64,000 bases of DNA from Octopus vulgaris (lineage: Eukaryota), in assembly GCA_951406725.2 (NCBI GenBank), contig OX597814.1:50220001-50284000 (forward strand), given 5' to 3'. The position numbers and the translations under genes were made by a program. The first letter of the stretch is position 1. The number at the start of each line of letters is the position of its first letter. Under the pieces are notes generated by a model. It did no database searches, had not been told where the DNA came from, and saw only the letters and a list, made by a program, of their open reading frames with translations. Shown one piece after another: positions 832 through 54,052 of this stretch.

Positions 832-1759
832 CTCAGTCACATATTCATATAATCATTTTATGTAATTAAAAAAGATTAACATGTTTTAATATACTGCTTA
901 ACACCTCTGCTCTTACCTCGTTAAAACATTTTTATACGTATATCAACACATTTTGTAACAGCTCTGTATGCATTTTTTATTAACAAAATTGTATCTTGTA
1001 GCAGAAAAAATGAAAAAAATTGTAATTATTATTACTGATTATGTTGTTTTTGATGGTTTGGTTATTGTTATTGTTCGTGATGGTGATGATGATGATGATT
1101 ATGATGATATTATTGTTTGTATTCATAATTCTTCCCTGTTTTCGCGAACTCCGAAGACTTCGATTATTATCATAAAGTTATTGAATGAAATGTGTTACCT
1201 TTTCGGGTTATTTCACAATGGAAGCCTATTCAGAATGCCCACCGGACTCTCTAAATGGGCTTTAGCCGGCAAAAATAATTAGGTTGGTTTTCTTAAACAT
1301 AATAAATTTTTGCGAACCTTCTTGACGCAGCGTAGCAAAACAACGTCCACAGCAATAAATAAAGAACATTCAACAAATGAATAACAGGACACGACTTATA
1401 AAGAAACAACACGAAAATAAAGAAATTGAAGTAGCAGTTTTAAATGCATAGACGTGCATATCTCAAAAAAACCTAAAACCTTGATTACTATTCCATTGAT
1501 ATTATTAACGGAAAGACACAAAATGAGGACTGGGCGATATTGCAAGTAATAAATATTATGATTCTGGGTGCACACAGACTGAGCGAAAATAGAAACAGAA
1601 ATATTTCTGAAGGCGATTGTTCTGTTTGTATTGCTAGGCCAACTGAAAACTGGACATGACAAACTAACGCGTAAGCAAGTAGCATAAAAAGGATAAAGAT
1701 CCTTCCTGAGTGATGGAGACTCATAAAGCCGACTTCCCGTATTCTCTCGTGTATATATT

Positions 1760-2397
1760 ACGCACCCTGAACGGGACGCCGGTCCGTCGCAGTAATACTC
1801 ATTCTTGCCAACTGGAGTAACATGAAATGAAGTGTTGGATCTTTTCGGTTTGAACGGCAGTTTTTTCTAGCGGTGTCATATGAAATTGTCACCCATAATT
1901 ATGACCCTAGTATCGATCTGTTGCATTTCAATCTGTTTTAGGGTTAAGGTTAGTTAGGGTTAGGGGTGGGGGAAGAGTATCTTTTTTTTCTTCAGAAATG
2001 TAAATAAACCCAATCTGTTTCTTAAAGAGGGACATATTCATACGGCACAGAATGTTTTCACCTCAATAAACGTCATTGATTGGTTGAAATTGCAGAAATT
2101 GAAGAAAAAACAACAAATATCTTACAAACTATAGAATTTTCTCAATAAAGCCAAGAGAAAAATATGTTTTATAAACACATTCTACCAGTATACGAAGTTT
2201 AAAAGGGTTTAGTACGTGGAAATTATTTTAAAAAACTGCCGGTCAAACCGAAAAGATCCGAAGTGTTTTACTCAGGATCATGAAATGAAGTGTTTTACTC
2301 GAGATCAAGAACACAACGCAGAGTCCGGTCCAGAAATCGAAACCACAGTCTTACGACCATGAGTTCTACACTATTCTCACTAAGCCATGCGCCTCCA
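1760..2397 (-). mobile_element. tRNA-derived SINE interrupted by a MITE
   Basis: ccctgaacgggacgccggtccgtcgcag...gaaatgaagtgtt | MITE | caagaacacaacgca...gaaatcgaaacc...cactaagccatgcgcct; reverse-strand A/B-box-like head near 2335-2395. Confidence 0.65.
1837..2259. mobile_element. MITE with 30-bp TIRs and 8-bp TSD (Merlin-like)
   Basis: TIRs ggatcttttcggtttgaacggcagtttttt / aaaaaactgccggtcaaaccgaaaagatcc; TSD gaagtgtt at 1829-1836 and 2260-2267; internal gggttaaggttagttagggttaggg. GG-starting TIR plus 8-bp TSD fits Merlin, but the superfamily call is inference. Confidence 0.85.
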
Positions 2398-3994
2398 CCA
2401 TAAGCAAGTAGTATGACAGCGTTATTTGAAACTAGGCAGCCCCTCGTGATTTGAACAGTATACAAACGAATATCAGTTGCATTCACTATTCTATATTATG
2501 AAGAAGAATAATTTATAATTAATCAATCTGAATACTGAATATTTTGCTGATAAACTTCAGGTTTTTATTTTAGTTTTTGGTTTTTTTTATAATGTCTAAT
2601 TACAGGCTAGGTAAAAACCGAAGGAAATGTTGAAAACCTTACCTTAAAGGTGTTAGGAGTGATTCTTGTTTGAAGTAAAGGATAACTTTTTAACGCAAGC
2701 ATATTTGTAAAAGTAACTGTTGTTTTGAAAATTCCCATATAATATGTTTACTAACTTTTATATAAACAATTTATTTTATTATTTTATCTATATATTTTAT
2801 TGTATTTATTTATTTATTTGGATATTGCTTGTATACATTTGTCGAAATTTTCATTAATTTATATTTTCTAGGCTCATCAGCAAAGTTTTTACAAATAGGA
2901 ACAAACATGTAATCTATTCAATGCTGGAACTGTTTATATTTTCGATAAAATTCTTGTAAATGTTTTCTTTTAAATATTTTCACAATATTTCTGAGAATTC
3001 TCCTGAGGAATATAATGAGAAACGTATCTTCGTTACGAGAGAAAATCGGGAATTTAAAGATTAAACAAGAAGTGCAGTAGTTGAAGGAACAGCTTCTAAC
3101 CCTATCCTCACAAAAACAGTGGGAAGAACAAAGCGATATGTAGCACGAGCAGTAATTGACAATGCTGCTTGTCAAGCAGACCAGCAAAACGATCAGTGTC
3201 GGCACAACTGTGGAAGTAACTCAAGCAGCGGTACCACATGCAGCAACAACCACTTTGGTACTAAAAGATAAAGCAACACCGCAGATATCTCTGGAAAACA
3301 GGCGAGCTAACAAATTATCCTCTTGGCGTTTAATCGAACTTTCTAGGAATAACAGCCAAATTTCTCTCAAATCGCATTTCTCTCAAATAGTAAAATTAAC
3401 AAATACTTCATTTTTAATGGGCATTAAATGTATATTGGATGCTTAAATCTACAAAATATATGTTAGTTACTTGTTACTTTTTTTGTCATTTTTCGCTTAT
3501 TAAATACTTAAAACACATGACATATGAAGTGGCCGTAAAATCATAGCTATATAGGCCTTAAATCACCCACCAACATTATTTTGTTTAGTTTGTGCATAAT
3601 CGTTTGAATTCCTATGTGTAGAATACAAATTCGCAAAAATTTTCTGAAAATTCTTCAAAATAATTTATATGTCGTGCGTAAAGCAGAATTTCACCAATAT
3701 TTCATTTGTTTACAGTTTCATATTAAAACACGTGTTAATTTCGGAATATTGATAACACATGCTGTCACATACAAAATGATAGCTTTCAAATCCTGTTTTG
3801 TGGATGAGTAAAATGTACCTGTAACTATTTTAAAAAAATTTCAGAAAATATTGAGATTCAGCATGGAAAATTACATCAATACACAAAGTTTTAAAATTGT
3901 CACTATATTTTAAAATTTCCGCAGGTGCAGCCAACCAGAAAAGATTAAAAAATGAAAAAAGAATTTGACAGGGAATAATATACCATGTTAATGC

Positions 3995-4562
3995 AATCGT
4001 TGCTAAAAATAATTCTATTAATTTTATTAATTGAAATAATAACCTGTAGAATCTACACAATTTTGTAAACAAGAACCAAGGTTCATTATTCCGACAGTGT
4101 AGAATTCTGGAGTCCTAAAATCAACGAAATCTTCGAAAATATTTTGAGCTGCTACTTCGTTGTTGAAGACCTTTGTCATTATGACACTTGGGAAAGCGGT
4201 AGCTTCTTGGAGAAAGGTGTGAGACGTAAACCTGGTGAGGTAGATAGCGTGGTCCAGTTAGTTCAATTTCTGGACAGTCAATTGTAAAATGCATGGTCAG
4301 ATGTTGTCACAGAAAAGAACTAGTTGTCTTCAAATGACCATTGTTCGATGTAAATGTGGTTTTTGATGCATTTCCTCAAATTTCTGGCAATGCATCACTA
4401 TTGTGGTAGTTTTGTTAGGTTCTAACAAATAATAATAGACGTTTACACTTGCCAGCCCCCAAACAGTGGCCATCAGATTCTTTTGATGCAGCTTTGGTTT
4501 AGGAAAGTATTTCGGTGCTATAACTTTATCCCGTAACTGCGCAGTACATTGGATATTGTATG
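3995..4562 (-). pseudogene. Decayed mariner (cecropia/Hsmar1-like) transposase C-terminal half
   Basis: APKYFPKPKLHQKNLMATVW, LFCDNI*P (HDNARPH), LPHQVYVSHLSPRSY (HPPYSPDLSPTDY), FNNEVAAQNIFEDFV...LQNCVDSTGYYFN*; stops and frameshifts. Confidence 0.9.
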
Positions 4563-5824
4563 TGTAGAAAAGAAACAACAAACAAAACAAAGGACTGACC
4601 CCTGTATATCACTAAAGCTATGCTTACCGACTCCAAAAGAGTAAAATGTTAAACGTTGACTTCAGTACAATATGAACTGAAGCAAGGCAGAGCTGAAACG
4701 AATACTGCAAGGTATTATAAACGACACCTTATCGGACTCTTTAATTCGGTGAAAGACACGAAAAAGAACATAACGTATAACACTTGGTACAGAACCTGTC
4801 GTATTTATGTGTGTGTGTGTGCATATATGTGCACATTTACATACATACACACGCACTCACATACATGCATACGCACTTGTACATATGTACGTTTGCGTCT
4901 GTGTGCATGAGCGTATATGCATGTAAATACGTATATATACATGTGTACCTGCATGAGTCTGTGCGCGCGCTCGTTCATTTGTGCTTGCTTTTCACTTCTT
5001 GGCAACAGATGATGGTTTGTTACTTAGCTGTCCGGCAAAAAGATGGGATAAAATAAGTGCCCAACTTACAAACGGAAAGAAGAAAAAGTTAAAGAGTAAA
5101 AGAATAAGATTAAAACCAAGCGCTTTGTCCTTGAATGAGTTTGTGCTCTATTATATTTTCATTGTCGCTATTGCAGATGCAGTTTTCTACAAGTTTATAC
5201 AGTTGAACATGCTACGCATGCACCGAGAGTCCGTTCATTCCGCCAACATGTCGATATCTGGGAGTCATAAAAAAAGAGTAATTTTCCATGGCTGTCTTTT
5301 GACTTATGAGTGACTTGACACACAGGCATTAAGTATGCAAGCACCCTTGCCTTGTGTGTATATATGTGTGTGTGTGTCTGTGTTTTCTTGTCTTTCTTTT
5401 AAGTTATTTTATCTCATAGTGTCCGTTACTAAAACACTATAGATCCTTAATCATACTAAGCTCAATCAGTCACAGTTAAACTATGTCACACTGATGCAGT
5501 TAAATGAGACCGAATCAACACCGAAGTCATCACAGTTTCGATAAAGATCAGAATCATTCTCCAATGCTTTCTTAGTTCGTGTTTTTTTATCCTCATGCTG
5601 CTCTGTATTAGTTGCTTGCAAAATGTGAGTTCCGGCAAATAATTTCATAATTGTTATAAATTACTATTTCTTTAATAAATCAAATTTTATTTATAAATTA
5701 ATAAAAGAATACTTTGATAAATTAAACTTACACTACCAAATATACTAGTGCACATGTGATCTAATTAGAAAGAAGTTGCACAAAGGTTTCCGAGTAGCAT
5801 TTTGCAGTCATTACACACACATTG

Positions 5825-6218
5825 CTGCAGGCGTGGCTGTGTGGTTAAGAAGTTTGTTTCGCAACCAAATGTTTTCAAGTTCAGTCCTACAGCACGGTCC
5901 CTCAGGTCTTCTAGTCTCAGGCCGATCAGTGTCTTATGAATTAATTTGGTTGACGGAAACTGTATGCATGGACGCGAGTGTATGTGTGTGTGTGTGTGTG
6001 AGCGCGCATCTTTGTGTTTGTATTCTCACTGTTTAACCACCGGTGTTGGTTTGTTTAGATCCTTGTAAATTAGTAGTCTTGCCGAAAACGTAAATGGAAT
6101 GAGTACCAAACTTTTAAAAAAAGAAGTGCTGGGATCGATTTGCTCGGCACCCTTCAAGACGACGGTTCAGTATGAACGTAGTCTTCTGACAAGTGAAACA
6201 AGTAAAAAAATAAAAGAC
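5825..6218 (+). mobile_element. Diverged tRNA-derived SINE
   Basis: gcaggcgtggctgtgtggttaagaagtttg head, internal (TG)n, aaacaagtaaaa tail; parallels 26060-26468. Confidence 0.75.
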
Positions 6219-6354
6219 TATGTAGGTATATGCATAAATTACTAATTCACACTAAATAATAGATAAGTTAACAATTAAAATATGGTTTCAGTGGCTACTT
6301 GGCTATATAGACAATGTTTCTCATGCATTTGATTGACTATATATTTCGTTGATA

Positions 6355-6745
6355 AGGCGGCGAGCTGGCAGAAACGTTAGCACGCCGGGCGAAATGCTTA
6401 GCGGTATTTCGTCTGCCGTTACGTTCTAAGTTCAAATTCCGCTGAGTTCGACTTTGCCTTTCATCCTTTCGAGGTCGATTAAATTAGTACCAGTTACGCA
6501 CTGGGGTCGATATAATCAACTTAATCCGTTTGTCAGTCATTGTTTGTCCTCCCTGTGTTTAGCTCCTTGCGGGTAGTAAAGAAATAGGTATTTCTTTTGT
6601 CTTCATGTTCTGAATTAAAATTCCGCCGAAGTCGACTTTCATACTTTCGGTGTCGATAAATTAAGTACCAGTTGCGTACTAGGGTCAATCTGATCGACTG
6701 CCCTCCTCTCTCAAAATTTCCGGCCTTGTGCCTAGAGTAGAAAAG
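6355..6745 (+). mobile_element. Two tandem copies of a second tRNA-derived SINE family
   Basis: ggcggcgagctggcagaaacgttagc...gttcaaattcc (B box)...gtaccagttacgcactggggtcga; body repeated from about 6590. Confidence 0.85.
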
Positions 6746-6939
6746 GATATGTTTCATTGATACAAATACATTTGACCAAATCAGCAATTAAGAAATGTTC
6801 AAAAATATAACTGATATGACTGAATTAATGTTCCAAATAAAAGAAATATGTAAATGAAGCTAAAATGGTAAATAAAGCTGACAAAGTTAAGATGCCATGT
6901 TAGGTACGCACACATGTACAATACATACACGTATATATA

Positions 6940-6974
<35 letters not shown>

Positions 6975-8213
6975 CACACAACGTATGTATACATATATGT
7001 ATATACACATACAGCCATGTATGTATATCTGCGTGTTATGGGAGTCTTTGTGTATGTGACATATATATAACAGGCAAGTTTTTTTTTTCGTGAAATTTAC
7101 AATGTTGCTGCACCCCTACATGCTGCATAACCTTCGTAGTAAAACCTTCTCAGCCTTTGATTGAAGTCTATAACGTCTGCAATGACTCCGAAATGGGTTT
7201 GGTGATGGGAATGACAACAATAACAATTACATTCTTGTTGTGAAGGATTTTTAGCATTTTGTTCGACTGAGTAACACCAGTGTTTTTATCTAAGCCTATC
7301 TTTACCGCACCTCTAAAATAATTAAAAAATAATATATAAATAAAATAAATAGAAGAAAAAAGAATAGAAAGAGAACGTATATATATATAAACCGACGAAA
7401 CTGGCTAGTCGTCTAAAGCCCCCAAAAGCCAGCGTGTGACTGAAATGAAATGCCATGGAAGGCTTCTCTACTGCCAAAATGGCATCGTTATAAATATATA
7501 AAAGTATAAATGAATGAATGAATGAATATATGAATACATTAATATATAAGCGAGTAAATAAATAAATAAATCGATAAAGAAATCGAAAAATACATTCAAA
7601 AATTAAAGTAGACTAATGATACTATACACCCAGACGTACACAGATTTTTTTTTTAATTAGACTCATACGAGTATATATCTCTATATATGCACACACACAA
7701 CACAGATTACTCACCTAGACATTGAGAAACAGAAAAATCACATTTACTCACACACAGACAGACATAACATACATTCATATGCAAAAGAAAAAACAGAACA
7801 CATGATTCCTGGCACACGTTTGCATTGAACAATATAGATGCACACGTGTAAACATATTTTCCAATAGGCATGCACAAATGCAGGCAAAAATAACAATGGC
7901 AGGCATAAACACGTATCCACCTTATCATGTGGAGATGCATTCGTGCGTTGTCGCTGCAATCTACTGAACGAGTATCAGCCACTCATTGCGTCAAGTTTGT
8001 GTGAGCGTGTAGATGAGAATTGCCAAATCTTCTTAAAATCACTCTCTACCGTCTTATAAAAGGAAGAATATACATCACATAAGATGATCCTACATAAACG
8101 ATGTTTCAACAGAAATTGGAGGAGTGATCGTATGTGAAGGTCCTTTCATCAACGGTATGCTCCATCAGGTTTTACCAGATATCATAACGAAAACGATAGG
8201 ACTGATAAAAAGC

Positions 8214-8423
8214 AAGTTATCTCAAAGAACCCCAGATGATTTCAAAATTAATGTGTAACTTGATACTTTTACACTGTCAAGAAAACCAGGTATCTGAACC
8301 AGGTCAGCAATGGAAATGATCTCTACATTTTCAGCTATCATTTCAGATACCTGGTTTTCTTTAACTGTAAAAGTACAAACCATACATTACTTTTGAAATC
8401 ACTGGGGTTCATTGACAGAACTT
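8214..8423. repeat. Diverged foldback / MITE-like inverted repeat
   Basis: gaaccccagatgatttcaaaa...tacttttaca...aagaaaaccaggtatctgaa versus ttcagatacctggttttctt...tgtaaaagta...ttttgaaatcactggggttc. Confidence 0.75.
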
Positions 8424-8479
8424 ATTATTTAGTTCTATCGTTTTCGTTTTCTCTCTCTCTCCACATACATACGTGTATG

Positions 8480-8513
<34 letters not shown>

Positions 8514-8596
8514 TGTATGTATGTATGTATGTATGTATGTATGTATGTATGTATTATGTAGGTATGTATGTATGTATTATGTATGTATGTATATGC

Positions 8597-8762
8597 GATG
8601 GCGTGGCTGTGTGGTAAGGAGTTTGCTTCTCAATCACATGATTTCCGGTTCATTCTCACTGCGTAGCACATTGGGCAAGTGTTTTCTACTATTGCCCAAT
8701 GTGCCAAACAAAGCCTTGTGAATGGATCAAATAGGTGGGAACTGAAAGAAACCCATCGTATG
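8597..8762 (+). mobile_element. SINE 5' part
   Basis: ggcgtggctgtgtggtaag...ggttcattctcactgcgtagcacattgggcaagtgt...aaagccttgtg, matching the 26060-26468 family. Confidence 0.75.
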
Positions 8763-9840
8763 AAAGCCAGAGCGAATGGATGTTTAGGACACACAGTGAA
8801 TATTCGAGGAGATATCTATGTATCTGTCTGCCTGTCTGTCTTATAGAAGTGACGAACTGTAACAGAGAAGAGAGAAAGTTTCTCGAATAAAGCAAAAAAG
8901 GATGAAAAGTTATCAGCTCACGATTGTGGGTTTCTATGAAGTGAAGCCAGAGATAGCGGTGTACATGCTTGCGCCAGATTATGTTTTGCTTCATATTAGA
9001 CATGAGACGACGGACGTTGGTACATGCATTTGGTTGGGTGATCGGCGGAAGTTATCGGGAAAACACTGCAGTAAATCTGTACCCGCTTATGAATTTTCAT
9101 ATTTATGTACACACACACGCACACACCTACGCATGCACGCATACACACACACACACTCACACGTACACATACACGAACATGCACCCCCCCATCCACAGAC
9201 GCATAAATATGAATATATACATATCTTTTATCTTTTACTTGTTTCATGAATATATACATATCTTTTATTTGTTTCAGTTATTAGACTGCGGCCAGGCTGG
9301 AGCGCTGCTTCGAAGACTTTTCAGTCGAATGAATCGACCCCAGTATTTATATTTTATGTCTTGTACTTAGTTTATTGGAATCTTGTATTGAACTGCTAAG
9401 TTAAGGAGACATAAACACCCCAACACCGGTTATATATATATATAAAGCTTGCGTCAGTTTGAAACAGTTTAAATATATTTTTATTGAATTGATAAATGCA
9501 TTGTGTCAAAAACGTTTTTCTTCATTTTTCTATATTTTTTACATATGTATGCATGTGTGAAGGTGTGTAGAACGGTGCCTACAGTGTTGCACTCACAATT
9601 GCGAATTCGTGATTTCGAATGCCGGACCGTGAGCTGTGTTCTTCAGTAAAATAAAACTTCATTTCACGCTGCTCCAGTTCACTCAGTTGTAAATGAGTAA
9701 AATGAGTAACCCTGCGACGCCATGCTGTCTTGTCCAGTGCGAATAATTTGATTTCAGTTACTTATACATCACGGGAACCCGGGAACCGGCCCTAAGACAC
9801 GAGATTAGAATGGCTTATATATATATATATATATATATAT

Positions 9841-10102
9841 TGGTAAAAATGGTAAGACAACAAAAGAAAGAAAGAGACCTCGATATTATGTAAATAGAGG
9901 AATTTATCTGTAAATGTAATATGTGATAATTATTCGGTAGCCATGATAATACTCCGAGTTTCGGATGAAAAAAATGTTTTCATAGCATTTTTCCGATAGC
10001 CGGATAACTGAAAAGATGGCGGCGTGTATTTCCACTTCGGCATCGGAAACTCGGAGTTTTATCATGGCTACCGAATAATTGTCACATATTACATTTACAG
10101 AT
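9841..10102. mobile_element. (TA)n-flanked non-coding cassette with 62-bp inverted repeat and decayed hammerhead (PLE-derived, inferred)
   Basis: Arms 9906-9967 and 10041-10102 (3 mismatches); plus strand gataa-CTGAAAA-gatg...catc-g-GAAA-ctcggagtt-ttatc. Confidence 0.7.
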
Positions 10103-12426
10103 ATATATATGTATATATGTATATATAAACATAGGCTATGAGTCTCTGTGTGTATACTTTTTTGTCAGTAACATTTTAGCATTTCAAGCTGTTGAATTTG
10201 TTCCACTCCATAAGATTTACTTTCTTACTACAAGAGCTTCCTTATTTATATATTTCGTTTGTCTTTTGTAATTGAAAGTTCATTCTACTTTCTTAATACT
10301 TAACTAATATCTTAATAATCATAAATTTTGACGACTTGCCGTGCATCACAACATTTATAAGAGGTTTCGTGATCTTTATTTTAGCACGAGCAGGTAAGTT
10401 GCTTCCATACTATAGAACAATGACACTTAAGTTTGACTTGATTGTTTTTTCCACTAAGACCACTATCTCTCTAAATTTTCATACAAGGTCTCCACTTACT
10501 TGCTGGAGTTGTTCTATTTATCTTTTGTATTCAGAACTTCATTCCTCTACCTTCATTGTTTCATAATATTTTAATGTTCATAAATTCAGATGATTTGTCC
10601 GGCATCGCAACAGTCATAATTCTTATTTCTATGCTACTTTAGCGTGCGCTTTACCGCAGTATCTGTCGTCCGCGCTGTGAAATGACCTGATATGGGTTAG
10701 GATTAGGATGGGGAACATTTTGAATTTTCAGAATCAAAATTCAGAATGCTAAGGGTGTTAGTGCCTCCTCATCTTTACACAAGAAATGTAGTTCTTTATG
10801 AATTTCAGCAGTGAATCATATCCGTATAGTATTTTGGGAGTGATAAACATCATATTCTTATTTTCCTGTTATTTCGGCATTTTTGTTTTTTTCATCATCT
10901 ACTAATTATCAACTTTTATCGGGTTACTTTTACCTCCATCAAGTCCGTCATTATTGACGTCTCGAGTACTCTCACATATATATAAGAAATACATAGGTAT
11001 ATATATACATGACTTCAAAAATGTAACTGCCAGTGATTGTTGGCAATCTTTTTCTCCTTCGTCTTGGACCTTCCTGTTTCTTCCTGTTTCCGAAGAAGCG
11101 CTATGCTCGAAACGTAAAACTTCTACTATTTTCCTTCTATCGTCTTAGTAATACCTTGCTTGTGCCACGTCCAAACATTTGCTTGACTAAAGCCTTACAT
11201 AGAGCCTTTTTTGTATGTTAGAAGTAAGTAAAAATTCTTGTTGAATTGGCGGTGTTGGGAACACCAATAGACAACCAGCTTTCGTTCCAGTGGTTTATGG
11301 TCAATAGTTCAAACGAGAAATTTACTTTTTTAGAACCAAAGAAAAATAATTCAATCAATAACCTACCATAAATTATCTATGTACCTATATCGAATTTATC
11401 CTTCCTTTTTAATACTGTACAGTGTGATTTAATAGAAAATTTGGTTGCAGTTTCTAGCAGGTTAGCCAACTACATAGCATGCGTTATGTGATTTGGCCAT
11501 CTGGGGTAATTGATTACGAACTATCAATCTCTCGGTTAGACTATCATACTCTCTCTTAAGGATGCGGCTACTCATGTTTTCTAAGAAATTGCAGGACGAC
11601 GGAGAATTAAAACTGACATATAATTTAGTATATGAAATATCTGGGTTTGTATCGGCTGTAGTTTCATCCTTTCTGTATAGATTTTTCCATAATCTCCGTC
11701 TTCATAAAATATTCTTATTCAGGAACTTACGTGCAAGTTAGGTATTTCGAAAAAACATCATAAATATATGCCTGTTCTGTAATTATATTAAATGAATTTT
11801 CTTTATTTTTGCAGTTATTCAGTATTTTTTAATAATTTACAGAATTTAAAAAAAATAAAGTATGTACGTTACAGTGTTTAGTGTCTATCTAGTTAAAATT
11901 TCACTAATGACTACACTGATCTTTCATAAATTTGATAAAGTAACTAACGTTGCAATCGTTTGTCCATTTCCCTTTTCTATCTTTCTATTATATATCAGTA
12001 TGTTACTGCGGCTTTGTGCCTAAGAATGACATCAATATGCAAAAGAATGAATATCTGAATGTGATAGTCTGACAAAAGCAAATTTATTAAGAAAATTAAA
12101 GCATATTCTTATTATTTTAGTTACCCAAAAATCTAACTTTTTCTTTCAAATTCAAAACAAGAAGAAAAAAATCGTTTCCAATTTTCAAATTCAACAAAAC
12201 TGATATTAAATAAACATAGAAAACAGCAGTGACAAATAACGAAGTCTACATTTTGTTGTGCGTTTAAATTTCCTTGGAGATTTAATTGGCATTCTTTCAA
12301 GGCGGCGACCAACGATTTCAGGCTGTTTCTCTGCTGAATATATTAGGAAAATTCCTATTTTTAAAACAATACGTAAATTATAAACAAATAAACACTTCGT
12401 TTTCATATATATATATACACACATAC

Positions 12427-26468: not shown

Positions 26469-26489
26469 TATATATATATAAATATATAT

Positions 26490-26730
26490 ATATAATCTGT
26501 ATTAAATTAAGAGAAGAAAATGAAGATTTAGTGGTTAATAATTTTTTATTAATAAATAATTATTAATCACTAACTCTCCATTTTCTTCTATTAATTTAAT
26601 ACGGATTATATATTATACCAATTGATTTAGGGAAATTTTATTTCCCAAACATATAAGGTATAGAACCAGTGTTTTCTTGGATGTAATCATTCCTTCATGA
26701 GGTTAATACATTCCCTAATTAACTTAAATA
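26490..26730. mobile_element. TA-flanked cassette with ~55-bp inverted repeat and decayed hammerhead-like motif
   Basis: Hairpin about 26490-26611; minus strand gtattaac-CTCATGA-aggaatgattacatcc-aa-GAAAAC-actggttctatac at about 26658-26709. Confidence 0.5.
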
Positions 26731-26895
26731 TATACACATACACACACACACATACAGACACACATATATATTTAAATGTATGCATGTATGTATGTATGTA
26801 CGTGTGTGTGTGTACGCTTGCATAAATAAATAGAGTTTTTAATCAGTTGGACCCATTAATATAATTTTCTCAAATTCTCTCTCTTTATGTATATA

Positions 26896-26993
<98 letters not shown>

Positions 26994-27039
26994 TGTATGT
27001 ATGTATGTATGTATGTATGTATGCACGCATGCATGTATG

Positions 27040-28290
27040 AGGAGAGAACCAGGAATAAATACCTCAGAAGAGTAAAGAAAATATTATCATCAGAGCTCTC
27101 TGCTTACAATAAACATATCGCCCAAAATACCTTTGCAGTGTCTGTTCTCACGCCTACGTTTGGCCTTCACACGTGGTCACGACAAGAATTCAATGCGATA
27201 GATGTTAGTGTTATAGGAAACTTCGACATCAAGGGAGATGTAGACAGGATATATATAAATTCACACAAGAATGGTGGTCGTAGCCTCAAATCTGTATAGA
27301 TATCATATGAAGCACGTATTGTAACGCGGAAACATTTGCAGCAGTAGAAAGAGACATGTAACCGTCTTTTCCAAGTTTGTGACCATGAAATCAAAAACAT
27401 AATTAGGATTGCTAGTGAACTTGAGGAGCGGTATAAATGAAGAGCTAAGACAGATCTTTTCCCCGGGTGCATTGGTAAAATCTATTTAGCAGAACAACGG
27501 AATGAAAAAATGGAACAGTTCACTGACAAAATAGTGCAACGGTACACGTCACGTAAAACACAATCCATAGAATAGATTAATCATGTCAAAAGCCTGGCAT
27601 GGAGTACCGACAAGTCTATGACATCCCTCGTTTTAAGGCTACATCCATATAATCCAAGAACAAGAGATCACCACAAGTACCTACAGTATATCAGGCAGAA
27701 AACATTTACATACAATAAATGCAGGCTGTGCAAGTCCGAGATTGAAGACATCAATCACGTTATTGCCAACTGCGAGAGATTGTCTTCTAGATATTATTGT
27801 AGGACCACAAAGGAAAGATATCTTGCCTTGGTAACAAAATAGAAAACATTTACAAACGAAGTTCATCATATGGAGACCAATAGGTCAAAAGAATATTGGT
27901 GGAACTTAGAAATTAAAACAGCCACTAAGTTAAAACACAACCCGTCAGATATTGTTGCGTAGGACCACAAAGGAAAGATATATTCTGTCGCGGAAATCTG
28001 CTGTCCTCTGGGTTCCAATGTGGTTAGAAAAATACAAGAGAAATAGGACATCTATAGATCATTGATAAGGAGCTTGCAAATCCAGTATCCAATATAAACT
28101 CCACTATTATTAGTGGAGCAACAGAGTACATATTAACCATCTGCAGCAAAATGTAACTGGATTTCGAATACTGCGGAGATAACGCGAATTCATACGCTAC
28201 AAATGACCACGATATCTGGGATTACAAAATATTGTAAGGCCTTAAGGTTTAAAGAGTGATAAACAAAGCAAGATGATTTTCTTCACAACA
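27040..28290 (+). pseudogene. R4/Dong-clade LINE relic (RT thumb, CCHC knuckle, RLE endonuclease)
   Basis: [18 protein letters not shown]...FAVSVLTPTFG, DVDRIYI...GGRSL, CRLCKSEIEDINHVIANC, KHNPSDIV; many stops. Confidence 0.85.
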
Positions 28291-28439
28291 TTGCTACCAA
28301 GTAGGTGGCCGGTCAAGATTTACTCTAAATTAGAAAGAGAAAGAGAAGAGCAAACATACATACATACATACATACATACATACATACATACATACATACA
28401 TACATACATACATACATACTTAAATACATACATACAGCA

Positions 28440-29140
28440 GCATTACTTGTCTGATAAACTTAAATACATGTCCAAAGAAGTCACATGACTCTACCGTATC
28501 ATCAGATGAAAGGATGTGCGTATATGAGCAGAAGACTATGCATGGATATGTTAGTAGAAAGCTCTGAAATGATAGTAACATTGATCATCAAAGCATTCTA
28601 TCATCAAAGCATTCTATCATAGACTAACAACCGGATTACTACCTGCCACTTTGAAGGGTATGCGTTTATAATCCAGGAACAGCAAATTTCAATCAAATAC
28701 TTAGTGTACGAAAGGGACAGAGATGCAGGAAAAGCAGCACTAAAATGTGACAACCGATGCAGATTTTGTGAAGTTAACACCGACGTTATCAACCACATCA
28801 TAAGCAGTTGTCCGAAAAAGTCATCACGATTTTATCTACCAATGAAGCATACTGTTGCTGGAACACTGTATAACGAGATCCGTCGAAAAGATAACCCAGA
28901 GGACAAAGACATAAGAACCCACAGTATGGTAGAAGCCATAGCCACTCATTATGAAAAGGAGTACTGATGAAATGTCTCAGTGAAGACCTCAATAAAATGT
29001 AAGCACAACAGACCTGATATAATGATTTGGGACAGAGGAGAGAAACTGTGTACAGTTGTGGAAATTAGCTGCCCAGCAGAAGTTAACATAAAGCTGAAGA
29101 ACAGTGGAAAAGTGAGTGCCTACACTGAATTATTGAAATA
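28440..29140 (+). pseudogene. Second R4/Dong-clade LINE relic
   Basis: EGYAFIIQEQQISIKYL, CRFCEVNTDVINHIISSC, KHNRPDIMIWD, VVEISCP; flanked by (ATAC)n. Confidence 0.85.
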
Positions 29141-29192
29141 AAACTGAAAAATGACACACATACATACATACATACATACATACATACATACA

Positions 29193-29224
<32 letters not shown>

Positions 29225-29716
29225 CAGGAACACAAGTTTTTGAATGATAAAATTATAATACAAAATACATTTCAGTTTATATTCAAGCCACATGCAATTA
29301 ATTAATTCGTGGCATATTAATTAATTAATTCCAGCGTGACAAAGTTTAGCACACATCATCAAATGTTTTATTTGCTATTTAAAAGTTACAAAATGTGTGT
29401 AGTGTTAGCAGGTTAAAAGTTAAAAATATGAATGTACGTATAGATATAAAATTTACACGATAAACATGAGTAAAATTAAAGGCATATAAGAATCACGTAA
29501 AGAATAAATACCGTGTGGAGACAAAGAGTGTGTCTGAAAATCGTATAAATATAAAGCAAGAAAACAAAGGAGTGTATAACGGAGCTCAATACGCCAAATG
29601 TGAAAACAAAAGAGGTGACGTTTCGGGCAATACTGTTTATCAGAGATAAGAAAGGAGTAGAGAAAGTGAGGAACAATAGAAGGAGAAAGAGAGTACGTTA
29701 CCAACTAATAATAATG

Positions 29717-30462
<746 letters not shown>

Positions 30463-30498: not shown

Positions 30499-31040
30499 TG
30501 CCCTGATGCAGAACCAAGCAGGGCTCTCATGGCTTCTGATCTTAAATAATTGGAAGTGTTATCATGTACACTGTTTTGTCTTGCTATAAAAGCAAATATT
30601 CTGCTCAATATCACAGATTTGCTTGTCAGCTGTCTGAGCTTAACCAGTTGAGCATATCCCTTAGTGCCTGACGATATGTGCATCTCTGATCACAAGCAGA
30701 AGTAGTGGGGGAGCAGCCTAGCCACGTGTTGAAAGGAATTCTTTGGGGTTTGGATAACTGACCTTTGGAAACATGGGTGTTTCATTCAACGTCCTTAAAC
30801 AACCTTTATTCAGGGACCTTTGAGCAGGATGGGCTACTCGACCTGAAGAAAATTCTAACTGGGCCCCACTTTCAAGGTCATATGTTGTTTATCTTAATAT
30901 GAGATCACCACGTTACGCACATATGGTTGTGATGCACGTGCCTGGCGTACCTTTACCACACGAGTAGTCATGATGGGTATACTGGGCTTCGTATATTTTA
31001 CCCCAGTGTCACTTTGATGCCATCACTGCTCTCTCACTCA
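30499..31040 (+). mobile_element. Retroelement 3' segment with (TAA)n tail, copy 1
   Basis: Ends ctgctctctcactca-ataataataa; reverse-complement match to 31108-31602. Confidence 0.8.
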
Positions 31041-31060
31041 ATAATAATAACAGCAATATT

Positions 31061-31107
<47 letters not shown>

Positions 31108-31108
<1 letters not shown>

Positions 31109-31601
31109 GAGTGAGAGAGCAGTTCATGCCATCAAAGTGACACTGGGGTAAAATATACGAAGCCCAATATACCCATCATGACTACCCGTCTGATAAGGGC
31201 ACACCAGGCACATGCATCACAACCATATGTGCGCGGCATAGTGATCTCATATCAAGATAAACTGCACATGACCTTGCAGGTGGGACCCAGTTAGAATTTT
31301 CTTCAGGTTGAGTAGCCCATCCCGCTCAAACGGTCCCTGAATAAGGGTTGTTTAAGGATGTTGAAAAACCCACCCATGTCTCCAGAGGTGAATTATTCAA
31401 ACCCCAAAGAATCCCTCTCAACACATGGCTATGATGCTCCCCCACTACTTCTGCTCGTGATCAGAGATGCACATATCGTAAGCCACTAAGGGACATGCTC
31501 AACTGGTTAAGGTCAAACAACTGACAAGCAAATCTGTGGTATTGAGCAGAATATTTGCTGTAGCCCATCTTTTATACCAAGACAGAACAATGTACATGAT
31601 A

Positions 31602-31602
<1 letters not shown>
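31108..31602 (-). mobile_element. Same retroelement segment, copy 2, inverted
   Basis: Reverse complement aligns to 30557-31040 (about 85-90% by eye); a third short 3' end lies at 31685-31732. Confidence 0.8.
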
Positions 31603-31640
<38 letters not shown>

Positions 31641-31729
31641 GTTATTATTATTATTGTTATTATTATTATTACTATTATTATTATTGAGTGAGAAAGCAGT
31701 TCATGCTATCAAAGTGACACTGGGGTAAA

Positions 31730-31809
<80 letters not shown>

Positions 31810-41385: not shown

Positions 41386-44300
41386 CCTAAAAATATAACA
41401 CATAGTATCGTAGCATCCAAGCGTAGTAGGAAGGTAGATCGTACTCTTGCTTTATAGTTATAGTTTTCAATTTCGAATTCACTGCCGAATTTTTAGTGAC
41501 GCCAAACCTAACGATAAACATAAATATTTCATTTCTAATGAAGGTAATAGTCCGGAAAATTATTGTCGTATTAATTAATAGCTCACACCAGACATCAAAT
41601 AACTTAGAAATAGTCAAGATAAAATTCTCATTAACTACTTATCACATTACCGTATTGAAAAGTCATTGAAATATTATGGCTATAACTTAGCCTGATGTAA
41701 GTAACTTTATTAAAAAGTGTCGATTTAAAAGAGACTTTCCATCGAAGCACTTTGATTACATAAATTTTATTGAATATAAATCAATATTGATATGCTTAAT
41801 TATATAAGTTTTATCGAAATTTGATGAGTATTGATATTTCTAGGGAGGTTTAATTAGAAAATGTATTATTGAAACGCTTCTGTCATCATCGATTTTATCA
41901 ATATGTAATACATGAGATGGGTGATTGTAAGACGTGAGCCGAAAAGTAGAATATCAAACGATCACATTATTTCATAACAACTTTGAAAGAACGTGTTTTT
42001 GTTTCTAATTTCTTACTTGTTTACAACTGCTTATATACATACTATTCTAATAAAATTCTCGTTTCTGTTTCAACCGGTTTGTATTTCTAATACAAATTAC
42101 ATCTACAATCATTACGTCTAATATGTTGCTCTGTGCAAAGTTTTATGATCTGAACGACTTCTCATTCTTTTCTCCACTTCAGTGCATTCCAGCCAGACTA
42201 TTATCTTTTATGGTGTAATGTGGAGATCAAGAGATTTGAACTCTCCTCAGCTCTTTCATTCCCCCTGAGTCTAATGTCTCTCGTGTGGCACAACATTAAA
42301 GTGCTATACATGTTTTGCAATATATTTCCATTTCTTCGGACATCAAGTCGTGTTCACTAAATATTGATCTCACATTCTCTTTCATCTCTTATCTACACAC
42401 CAGACATAGCTATATTATTGGTACATCTCCCAATAGACTGTAGCTGAAACCAACGAAATTTACCATTATGCTACAAACTAGAGATATATAGTAAGTCACA
42501 GATGTTTCTCTATATCTTTACCCTGATTTTCTGTTGGCATGTTTGAAAATCTCAAATACCAAACCCTGTTGGGCTGTTTATAATAAAATTTATCAATTGT
42601 AAATATAGCTCTTTGTTTTCTTTAACATAATTGTATTAGATCAAAGTCTATAATGAAAAATGATAACTTGAAGAGATAACCACAACTCATTGAAAAATAT
42701 TTTCTTGTTAAAAAGCAACCGATAAAGAAAAACGCTACAGAAAGTTTTGGTGTTAGTAACTATTAAAGTAGTAAGGCTCTTCAACAATTTTTTTAAAAAT
42801 CACAATTAGTATAATAAATTAGTATAATAAATTATATGTATCACGCATAAAGTATGATATATTGTATAACGATAAATCTGTATCGTAATTATATCATGAT
42901 ATGTTGGTTAGTGAATTCGATCGATATTATAAAAGGTCATCACTTCAATCGTAATATCTGTTTTTCCCTTATATCAAATGCTTAGTTTGTAAAAACAGGT
43001 TGAGTTCAAGATCGATCACCAAAAAGAAAATAAAGTTAAGTTGTTAACTTTAAGTAATTTCAATTACCTAGGGATTGTCTTTCGAAATTTTTCAATAAAT
43101 ATCATAGCAATTCACTCAAGTAGTTAAATAATTCTCAGTGCTGCAGAGACATGAAACTTATGTCATTTACAATAAATGATTCATCACTGAACTATTCGGT
43201 GACTAAATGAATAATGTAAAAAAAGTAACTGTCATGATTATAGAAATTGTATGTAATTTTGGTGTAAGGCCAACAGTTTTAGGGGTAAGGGTTATTCGAT
43301 TACAATACCTCCCAGTATTTGGCTGGAGTTTATTTTACTGACCCCCAAAAGACAAAATGCAAAGTTAGTGGGTGGATTTAAACAAGAAGAAATGCTGCTA
43401 AGCATTTTGTACGACGCGCTAACGAGTCTGCCAGCTCAAGCATAAAATATGTAGTAATGCTTATCTCCAGCTAAAATCTAAATATTACTAATAAACTGAA
43501 GTCGTAAACTGAATTAGTTTGTTTAATTCCATATGTATATATTTGGGAATTCTTCCTCCATATTTAATTCGTATACTATAAAGATATACAACTTATAAAT
43601 ATTTCTATAGTAACAATACTTTAAATTTTAAAGAATGTTTATTTTGAAGAGTTTATTGAATTTGCTGACTACAGATCTATGATACAGCAACCTTAAATGG
43701 TCTTATCGGTCTGAGTTAAAGACAGAAAACAATTTGAATGATTTTGTGCAAAAAATAACTAATCTAATTTTCTGATCAAGCAGCGGAGATCAAATACTAG
43801 ACTAAATTTGGTCCTTTCCTATAAATAAATATATTCTTAAATAGAATTTCTTAATCTCGGACATGAATATTTTTGCAAAACGAATGTATGATCCAATTAT
43901 CCGTTTGAATAACCTTCATATTTTACTGTAAAACCTCGAGGATTTCGAAAAATGATTGCAGCATCATGCAGCAACATACAACATAGAACAAATACTAAAG
44001 AAACACATTTCGAGCAGCTGTTCGATGAAACAATGACGAACAGACTGTTCCGAATGCGTGTCTGACAGTAAGAGTCCCTCCATAAGTCAAACTGGTTGTA
44101 TATAAAACGGTGGTGCACCTTACTCTTACCTATTACCGTAAAACATGGAAACTATACAGGAGACACAGAACGTAGTTCGATATCTACTTAAAAAGACTAC
44201 AATAGATGTGAAGGAGCAAATAGAAAGACTGAGTGAAAAGGATTAGACCCTGCTGCAAATAAAGAAAGCCTGCATCGAATAGATGGTAATCAAAGTACAA

Positions 44301-44739
44301 CTGAAATAGGTGAAGCAACTGACATGCATGCGCCACGCCTGATTTACTAAGGTAATCATTTATTCCGAGTTTCATACACGTGAGCGATGATACGGAGATC
44401 AAAAAAGGAGACACACGGTTAAACGGTAAGAGATAAAATTCAAATTGGAAACTAGCGAAAGACTGCGCTGTCTGTACAATACATATAAGCGCACTGGCTA
44501 CAAGTGACAAATTGCCGAAGTTCGGGGTATGCTGCTGAAAACCAGCAAGAACTACCAACCGCCTTGACTACCATCTATGCGTCCCACGCATGTGGGAGAA
44601 CAAGGATACCGAATCAGTTTACACGAGTATAAACGGGCTTGCTATCGAATGACAGTACCCAAAGGATCAATGCCAGAAATGATGGTCGGTTAAGAAATAT
44701 GTTTAGGAATGTATCTGTATATATATATACGTGTGCGTG

Positions 44740-48158: not shown

Positions 48159-48466
48159 ACAAGGAAAGATGAGAGAAGTAGTTACTAGGGTAGCCAAATG
48201 TCACATAAGCACTTTAAGATGTTACTAAGAAAACATACATGGGTAATAATTCCAAAGAGAAGTGAGACGTGTTTTGGAGAACTTAAGAGAAATGGAATAA
48301 TATTATTAATAATAATCACACCTTAAATAATAATATTAATAGAAATATTACATGTAATTGTAATCCGAACAGAACATGTTTTCCTTCTCTTCCTCTCGCG
48401 TCTTATGAAGTCTAATTTCTGAACGGTATTTTTATAATTACTAGCGTTCTCTATCCACCTTTTGTT

Positions 48467-49200
48467 TTGCTAGAACTTCTCAGTCTGGGCCCTAAATTTA
48501 TCTTGAGCCAACAGCCAAATGAAAAAATCTTAATCGACCTGGAAGCCAACTTTTGTCGAATAGCCTGCCAACTCAAATGGCTATCGATGATAAAGAAGAA
48601 GAACACACTCGGCAAATTTCCCACGTACCAACTAGACCACCCACTCCACTCACTCTCAACCAACCAAGAACTTAACCACAAACTATCCAGATTGAAACAG
48701 TCTATCTCCAACATCTTAAGGAAGGAATCGAAAATAAGTTCAAATTTAACCAAGGCGCAACAAAACATTGACTAAAAAGCAAAAACCTTGTATAATTACC
48801 ATCAGTTAAAGGAAAAGAAATCTGCATGATTTCTTGTGAAATATATAATAGACTGGCACTAGAACATTTAAGCAATGACAGGCTATATTCTGAAGTGATA
48901 GATATAACTGCGACCAGGATTGAGGACCGAATTAACACCGCATGGACGGACATCTGTAGACGGAGACAGATACATAATAAATTCAAGAACAACTTCATCA
49001 TAAAGAACAGAAGATTACTCAGATTTTATCACCTCATTAAAACACACAAGAATAGCAACACGATCCAGATTAGACCCATCGTCTCCAGCGTGGAAGGGCT
49101 TCTATATAAAATATCCTGGTTACTTTCTCACATCCTGAAACCCACACTCTCCACCTTTCCTGGACACGTCAAGAACTCCGACGAAGTGGTTTAGCAACCT
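48467..49200 (+). pseudogene. Penelope-like element RT N-terminal relic
   Basis: ELLSLGPKF; RFYHLIKTHK...IRPIVSSVEGLLYKISWLLSHILKP...HVKNS (PLE RT motifs 1-2); split by a stop/frameshift and truncated. Confidence 0.9.
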
Positions 49201-51332: not shown

Positions 51333-51392
<60 letters not shown>

Positions 51393-51399
<7 letters not shown>

Positions 51400-51740
51400 A
51401 ATATTAGGGAATAAATCCAAATTTACAGGGAAAAATCAGATTTAGGATTAAATCCAATTTTATAGTAAAATATTATATAATATAATTCGAGACAAAACCA
51501 CTATTTTGCAAAACAAACAAGGAAAGACTTAATCAATACATAAAAATTTTTAATATAAAGAAATAAACCGCCACTACAATCGTTTCATGTCTTCAATGAC
51601 ATTCGTCAGGTGGATTTTCGATCTCCTAATCTGTTTTAATTTATGAAGTAGTGGCGGTTTATTTCTTTATATTAAAAATTTTTATGTATTGATTAAGTCT
51701 TTCCTTGTTTGTTTTGCAAAATAGTGGTTTTGTCTCGAAT

Positions 51741-51751
<11 letters not shown>
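51393..51751 (-). mobile_element. (TA)n-flanked non-autonomous PLE/retrozyme-like cassette with perfect 104-bp inverted repeat
   Basis: Arms 51474-51577 and 51648-51751 are exact reverse complements; the 70-nt spacer holds the hammerhead core. Confidence 0.85.
51571..51613 (-). ncRNA. Type I minimal hammerhead ribozyme, canonical core
   Basis: CCAC-CUGACGA-AUGUC auugaa GACAU-GAA-AC gauu GU-A-GUGG; all core positions present, GUA site between 51575 and 51574. Confidence 0.9.
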
Positions 51752-51792
<41 letters not shown>

Positions 51793-53554: not shown

Positions 53555-54052
53555 TACATGGAAAAATGCGAGCGTGAAAAGTCATATTCTTAAGATTATA
53601 ACAATGGAAAAGTACAGGACAATTTATAACACCTGTAAAAGTATAGGACAAGCTATTCTAGTAAATTAAATACAAGAAACTTTTTACTTTAAATATTGGA
53701 GCAAAGAATGCCAGTTCTTCTAATTTATCACTCTTTACAGCTCTTTTAAATTTATTGTATAAAACTGTTCAGCTAATTTGTTTATTTAGTCATTTTTTTC
53801 TTTATTTAAGATAGTAAATTAGCCAAATTCTACTTAAATAAGTATAGTGTTATTTGTAAACTATAATAAAATAAGTTTTAATATTCAAATTTTAATTTTA
53901 GCTGCAATATTTTAAGTAAAAAGCTTCTTATTCTTTATTTACTAGAAGTAATAGCTTGCCCTATACTTTTACAGGTGTAATAACTTGTCCTGTACTTTTC
54001 CATGATTATAATCTTAAGAATATGACTTTTTATGATCGCATATTTACATGTG
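53555..54052. mobile_element. MITE with ~110-bp TIRs
   Basis: aaaagtcatattcttaagattataa...aaaagtacaggacaa...acacctgtaaaagtatagg versus the reverse complement at 53938-54052. Confidence 0.85.

Follow-up and report, generated by a model that had tools for sequence, protein, structure and literature searches.

Two copies of a non-coding, very high-copy repeat lie head to head in a TA-rich site of the window (the whole 64,000-nucleotide stretch of Octopus vulgaris DNA that was analysed). The most probable explanation, which we put at roughly 60%, is that a Penelope-type enzyme primed from both target strands and that the two resulting copies were joined through a shared GTA microhomology. The observation is real, and the layout is one more example of the known Penelope insertion layout. 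The locus comprises the following features, in window coordinates:

51337-51394, no strand: left (TA)n tract of 58 nt, the probable insertion target
51395-51650, minus (ribozyme sense): main copy of the non-coding, very high-copy repeat, delimited by contig alignments and loose ends
51395-51473, minus: 3' extension of ~80 nt found in the main copy only, a putative Penelope-type tail delimited by family contig ends
51474-51577, minus: left arm, the section of the main copy between the triplet and the no-tail end, delimited by arm alignment
51571-51613, minus: putative minimal type I hammerhead motif with a 4-bp stem I, CUGACGA core, 5-bp stem II and 2-bp helix III
51578-51647, minus: single-copy spacer of 70 nt, containing the hammerhead core and its upstream sequence
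51648-51650, plus: the junction GTA, a 3-nt microhomology assignable to either copy from family contig alignments
51648-51751, plus: right arm, an inverted 5'-truncated copy without the tail and without the ribozyme core
51746-51785, no strand: right (TA)n tract of 40 nt, perfect; the last 6 nt of the right arm lie inside it

An inverted-repeat search of the 64-kb window found arms 51474-51577 and 51648-51751 complementary at 104 of 104 bases, which bears out the perfect 104-bp inverted repeat described by the first-pass annotation. The two arms are 70 nt apart, and a position-by-position check showed that pairing extends over exactly 104 positions, the next inner positions being unpaired. On the minus strand, the region of arm, spacer and arm is predicted to fold at -177.6 kcal/mol (z -23.5), and 0 of 100 shuffles folded equally well. 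The whole insert measures ~357 nt. A check for target-site duplication found TA repeats on both of its flanks, and the window sequence is AT-rich with many microsatellites. We found no second copy of the family within the 64-kb window, and pattern scans of metagenomes gave no match.

We sampled the family from contigs of four public runs (X1 to X4), not from a whole-genome copy map. The searched stretch was present in 20 of the 24 runs listed (nine studies, three organism labels); X1 to X4 were filtered and read to 76-100%, with eight junction pieces listed per run. From 1373 to 9153 contigs per run aligned to 51395-51647, and in X1 only 1345 of 9153 contigs were at least 99% alike. The family is very abundant and heterogeneous. 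Two identical arms within such a heterogeneous family point to one template and one event. The arms differ at 0 of 104 positions, which places a 95% upper bound of 2.8% on their divergence. The head-to-head insertion is probably a single, young event, in line with the recent origin first proposed for it, although zero mismatches give no date.

The family has two 3' ends ~80 nt apart, each adjoining TA or TAA repeats. Among the 24 of 222 loose ends listed, (TA)n stands before 51474 in at least 33 contigs of X1 and at least 15 of X3, and before 51483 in at least 23 contigs of X1 and at least 11 of X2. The second 3' end lies near 51400; in the same 24 of 222, three runs show it in 11 to 19 contigs, and its flanks include both TA and TAA. 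The inverted arm uses the 51474 end, and the main copy uses the end near 51400. The arm does end in the TA tract, as had been noted from its merging with the flanking repeat, but this terminus is family-wide among the loose ends listed and not local. Upstream, 11 of the loose ends listed fall at 51639-51650, ~30-40 nt upstream of the core. None of these 11 (among 24 of 41 loose ends listed) has a shared high-copy continuation beyond this point, a pattern that suggests that 51639-51650 is the usual upstream end of the copied RNA.

Several other observations concern the family. A hairpin of 13 bp is predicted in the tail at 51395-51473, where the region folds at -13.0 kcal/mol, and the tail is a candidate RT-binding element. 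Behind 51644, a 591-nt contig occurs in both X3 and X4, and a flank is common to X1 and X4. Common flanks across organism labels suggest one shared insertion, and part of the family may therefore be older. A tenfold drop in depth near 51548 was considered as a 5' truncation and rejected, because copies of the family differ from one another at this point and depth of contigs gives no ranking of parts. None of the listed runs that contain the stretch is on record as RNA, which is evidence neither for nor against transcription. The window holds one core only, and no tandem joint occurs among the loose ends listed, a weak negative given that the contigs are short. A circular or tandem unit closing via an A/T-rich linker was raised from the loose ends, which fall short of showing it.

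How would two such copies come to be joined? In the Penelope-type insertion that we favor, the enzyme would nick both strands of the TA tract. One cDNA would start at the tail end (~51395) and run to the family's usual upstream end (~51650), and a second would start at the no-tail end (51474). The 3' ends of the two cDNAs would anneal at GTA/TAC, possibly aided by ATGAA/TTCAT, and would then be filled in. The coincidence of the arm with the ribozyme triplet would arise because GTA was also where the first copy ended, and the predicted blocking of the ribozyme would be a geometric side effect of the joining. The term twin priming comes from LINE-1 work. The two 3' ends ~80 nt apart, of which each copy at the locus uses one, argue for this mechanism.

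The ribozyme motif matters here because of where its cut would fall. Along the minus strand, CCAC (51613-51610, the 5' strand of stem I) is followed by the CUGACGA core (51609-51603), stem II, GAAAC and a loop, then by the GUA triplet (51577-51575) and GUGG (51574-51571, the 3' strand of stem I); the CUGANGA and GAAA core, stems I and II and the NUH triplet are all present. Hammerhead cleavage occurs 3' of the triplet, and the predicted cut site lies between 51575 and 51574. Rfam hammerhead models gave no match at gathering score, nor up to E 10, and the motif is therefore assigned by sequence alone. The Rfam E-value matches that did appear were miRNA hairpin models far under threshold; they are caused by the inverted repeat and were discarded. 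In a local fold, stem I has P 0.76-0.92 and stem II P 0.83-0.87; in a fold of the whole single copy, these values are 0.05 and 0.14. Folding of the monomer does not predict helix III (P ~0.007 or less). This helix is self-complementary, with a predicted 8-bp self-duplex of -5.8 kcal/mol, and the variant C51581T, found in 15-22 contigs per run, turns it into a perfect palindrome. Judged from these contigs, a self-complementary helix III is kept by the family and is typical of motifs needing a dimer. The closing pair of stem II is A-U, so that G10.1-C11.1 is lacking, and the extra base after A9 is absent; both are frequent traits that lie outside the descriptor in the portions of Cervera and de la Pena 2014 (PMC4209133) available to us. 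In run X2, a loose end before 51651 belongs to a family variant with a GUC triplet, an altered loop II and a palindromic loop III, in which stem II is retained.

The right arm opens with GTA-GTGG, and the first-pass annotation had accordingly started it exactly at the triplet. This start holds in part. Cleavage 3' of the triplet would yield a product opening with GTGG, which begins 3 nt into the arm as annotated, and the GTA itself may belong to either copy because family copies read GT(A) at 51648-51650. The first position of the arm is either the triplet (51577) or precisely the predicted cut (51574). The family letters come, among the pieces listed, from three contigs that continue past 51647 and align to 51649 (X2 records 9 and 10 and X4 record 25) and from two X2 contigs that align to 51650 and then run into A and TA repeats. 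These few contigs are a point against the microhomology as well as its basis, since the TA tract that follows could itself provide the last two letters of GTA. Only two TAC sites exist in the range of the arm, which favors the microhomology. Among 68 sites, the one used comes 2nd or 3rd in end-anchored pairing, although the anchored duplex is weak (~-3 kcal/mol) and the site is not the best one. ATGAA (51643-51647), adjoining the GTA, can also pair with 51584-51588. The exact junction is absent from the eight pieces listed per run for X1 to X4, where at ~57 nt it would be expected among the longest. This absence counts against the Penelope-type insertion; however, the runs were filtered and read to 76-100% and the insertion may be polymorphic, so a missing junction proves nothing.

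Six further head-to-head junctions were found among the loose ends listed, here positioned by arm start in main-copy coordinates:

51496, run X1: no microhomology
~51548, run X4, two contigs: 5 nt shared
51636-51639, run X1: palindrome
51638-51641, runs X2 and X3: palindrome
51569-51570, run X1: palindrome
spanning the 51648 junction, X2 record 11: 4 gap letters and 1 other letter

Four of the six carry 2-5 nt of microhomology or a palindrome, palindromes being called by comparing the loose ends with the locus sequence, and this again argues for joining through short homologies. Measured from the cut, four lie at least 25 nt away and two within ~8 nt, and none is demonstrated to fall exactly on it; the coordinates of X2 record 11 best fit an arm that begins ~5 nt ahead of the triplet, though it may begin at the cut. 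Among the junctions listed, breakpoints are therefore not fixed at the triplet. There may be a mild preference for the cut site. The two junctions within ~8 nt, together with one further X2 loose end (two contigs) that starts at the triplet and adjoins A-rich sequence, weigh against the GTA microhomology. Most junctions are represented by one contig, and the second searched stretch (51600-51700) was centered on the locus junction, which favors near-cut junctions. The joint 51600/51648 is an ordinary colinear copy cut by the chosen stretch and was excluded from the count; the joint 51452/51546 was left out since its orientation cannot be told.

Could the arm be a germline fossil of ribozyme cleavage? 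Here, within the same two-sided Penelope-type insertion, run-off cDNA from a cleaved RNA would stop at the cut (GTGG) and be joined to cDNA of an uncut RNA, which would supply the GTA. We regard this as a tentative alternative, with odds of perhaps one in five. The scissile bond lies within the interval over which the junction is ambiguous, and a uniform null gives such a hit a chance of 2.3-2.7%. The two listed junctions within ~8 nt are also consistent with it, as is the self-complementary helix III kept by the family, which would suit cleavage in a dimer. However, under a null that requires a 3-nt match, the used site is simply one of two. None of the 12 left-side loose ends listed (among 24 of 41) has a foreign or inverted junction at 51651, the cut itself, and the listed junctions do not pile up there. 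Moreover, in Anolis, RNA ends at the cut were not found and cleavage was dispensable for insertion, according to the available portions of PMC11167929. The proposal that a cleaved RNA end and TA microhomology shaped the insertion keeps its AT/TA target, but the GTA microhomology accounts equally well for an arm start at the triplet, and a part played by the cleaved RNA end is no more than possible.

Because the junction is ambiguous by three letters, the locus alone cannot decide the role of cleavage. It is nevertheless a data point for whether Penelope hammerheads, whose function is called unclear in the parts of PMC8557442 at hand, cut in vivo. A very high-copy family with many two-armed insertions offers a direct test by junction counts. 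If the arm were a cleavage fossil, the family junction tables would reveal in vivo cutting by minimal PLE hammerheads.

A somewhat less likely alternative is fold-back self-priming, in which a cDNA ending in GTA would have annealed back on its own TAC, extended over 101 nt with itself as template and met the TA tract by way of an internal TA-like stretch of the element. This would account for the identical arms, and the junction is able to form a bulged stem of 8 bp. The family includes three junctions that are perfect palindromes, and for palindromes of this kind self-priming has been proposed (PMC3846280, in the portions available). Against it, the arm stops at the family-wide no-tail end, which corresponds to an RT start site in Anolis (PMC11167929, likewise in part).

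An assembly or library fold-back artefact is very improbable. Perfectly identical arms, and an exact junction missing from the pieces listed for all four runs, would fit one. Nevertheless, the arm ends at a family-typical terminus, and independent runs contain six similar junctions, one shared by two runs and one nearly the same as at the locus, which makes an artefact unlikely; the fraction of each run that was read (76-100%), the eight pieces listed for each and possible polymorphism may account for the missing junction.

Least credible of all is that the arm was selected as an antisense lock that guards a host pre-mRNA from self-cleavage. The blocking that suggested this idea is indeed predicted: the arm lies upstream in the minus transcript, the active fold costs 18.2 kcal/mol with the arm versus 3.8 without it, and with the arm stem I has P = 0, so that stem I should be blocked in a minus read-through. 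A read-through transcript of either strand would also form a 104-bp duplex. The host-sparing part of the claim is unsupported. Any arm start at 51571 or above blocks the motif, which covers 45-55% of possible starts, and blocking is expected for three of the six other listed junctions, matching chance. Since roughly half of arm starts block anyway, a lock needs no design. In addition, monomeric minimal hammerheads showed no in vitro cleavage in the available parts of Cervera and de la Pena 2014 (PMC4209133), and the monomer, as given above, has no predicted helix III. The arm lacks the core and therefore cannot serve as a cleavage partner. No host exon or minus-strand gene was found in the frames scanned, from which short exons could escape. 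A suspected host exon near 44.2-44.6 kb proved to be a frame full of stops, and a sigma-70 scan was irrelevant to an animal locus. Blocking of the motif is likely a by-product of how the two copies joined, not a built-in lock.

The window contains other mobile-element remains. The nearest Penelope-type RT fragment (48416-49191, plus) lies 2.2 kb away on the opposite strand and has no sequence in common with the hammerhead family. It is broken, and its best relative is 61% identical; it is classed as Penelope-type because a relative, P0009, carries RT and GIY-YIG. At 30559-31734, an inverted pair of a different family has arms of ~430 nt at 89% that meet in an (AAT)n/(ATT)n tract, with a short third piece at 31634-31734. 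Fragments at 26865-30269 (plus) presumably derive from something like a non-LTR retrotransposon with a restriction-like endonuclease; they end near (AAT)n and (AAG)n tracts, and their Pfam matches are sub-threshold only. A stop-riddled frame at 43900-44690 (plus) has no Pfam match and ends in a motif that we take to resemble a GIY-YIG endonuclease. Other imperfect inverted repeats (72-90%) lie at 53556-54051, 8186-8448, 9902-10106 and 26483-26617.

How does the octopus repeat compare with known systems? We found no literature on this family, on an antisense lock or on arm starts at the cut site; supplements may hold a PLE consensus that includes the family. The comparisons below draw on the portions of each source that were available. 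Like non-LTR retrozymes (Cervera and de la Pena 2020, PMC7229834; Li et al. 2026, 10.64898/2026.07.22.740005), the octopus repeat is non-coding, low in GC and PLE-related, with a ~260-nt unit that bears a type I hammerhead. Unlike them, it has no tandem unit at the locus, no tandem joint among the loose ends listed and no circular RNA evidence. It shares with the minimal type I hammerheads of metazoan PLEs (PMC4209133) a 4-bp stem I, a short self-complementary helix III and many dispersed single copies, and opposite-strand pairs are reported there as well. In contrast to those hammerheads, its 5-bp stem II is closed by A-U, where G-C is usual, and lacks the extra unpaired base; its triplet is GUA, with one GUC variant found.

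The Poseidon element of the green anole (PAc; Frangieh et al. 2024, PMC11167929) offers the closest view of the enzyme, again as far as the available text goes. Two RT start sites flank its tail, nicking and extension in vitro affect both strands of the target, and hammerhead mutants still insert; no RNA ends were found at the cut site. As in PAc, two fixed ends flank the octopus tail, the target is AT-rich and the hammerhead lies upstream of the ends. PAc, however, is autonomous and tested in vitro, whereas the octopus family is known here only through its sequences.

Finally, insertions of EN+ Penelope-like elements, as described in the available parts of Craig et al. 2021 (PMC8557442), contain a 5'-truncated copy in inverted orientation, carry a tail on one side only and show a (TA)n bias, and head-to-head junctions with palindromes are reported in Penelope-like elements in those of Arkhipova et al. 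2013 (PMC3846280). The octopus insertion differs in that it is only ~357 nt long and in that its tail is ~80 nt versus the published 30-40 nt (PMC8557442), which counts against the Penelope-type reading. So does the lack of an RT plus GIY-YIG ORF: none was found at the locus, and none of the 24 of 41 loose ends listed has a conserved upstream continuation that would link one to the family. The shared traits are nonetheless many: a head-to-head inverted and truncated copy, a tail at one end, a hammerhead in the repeat, a TA microsatellite target, and short homologies or palindromes at the junctions. On these traits, we do not assign the octopus repeat to an autonomous PLE, but it appears to work like a PLE terminal repeat.
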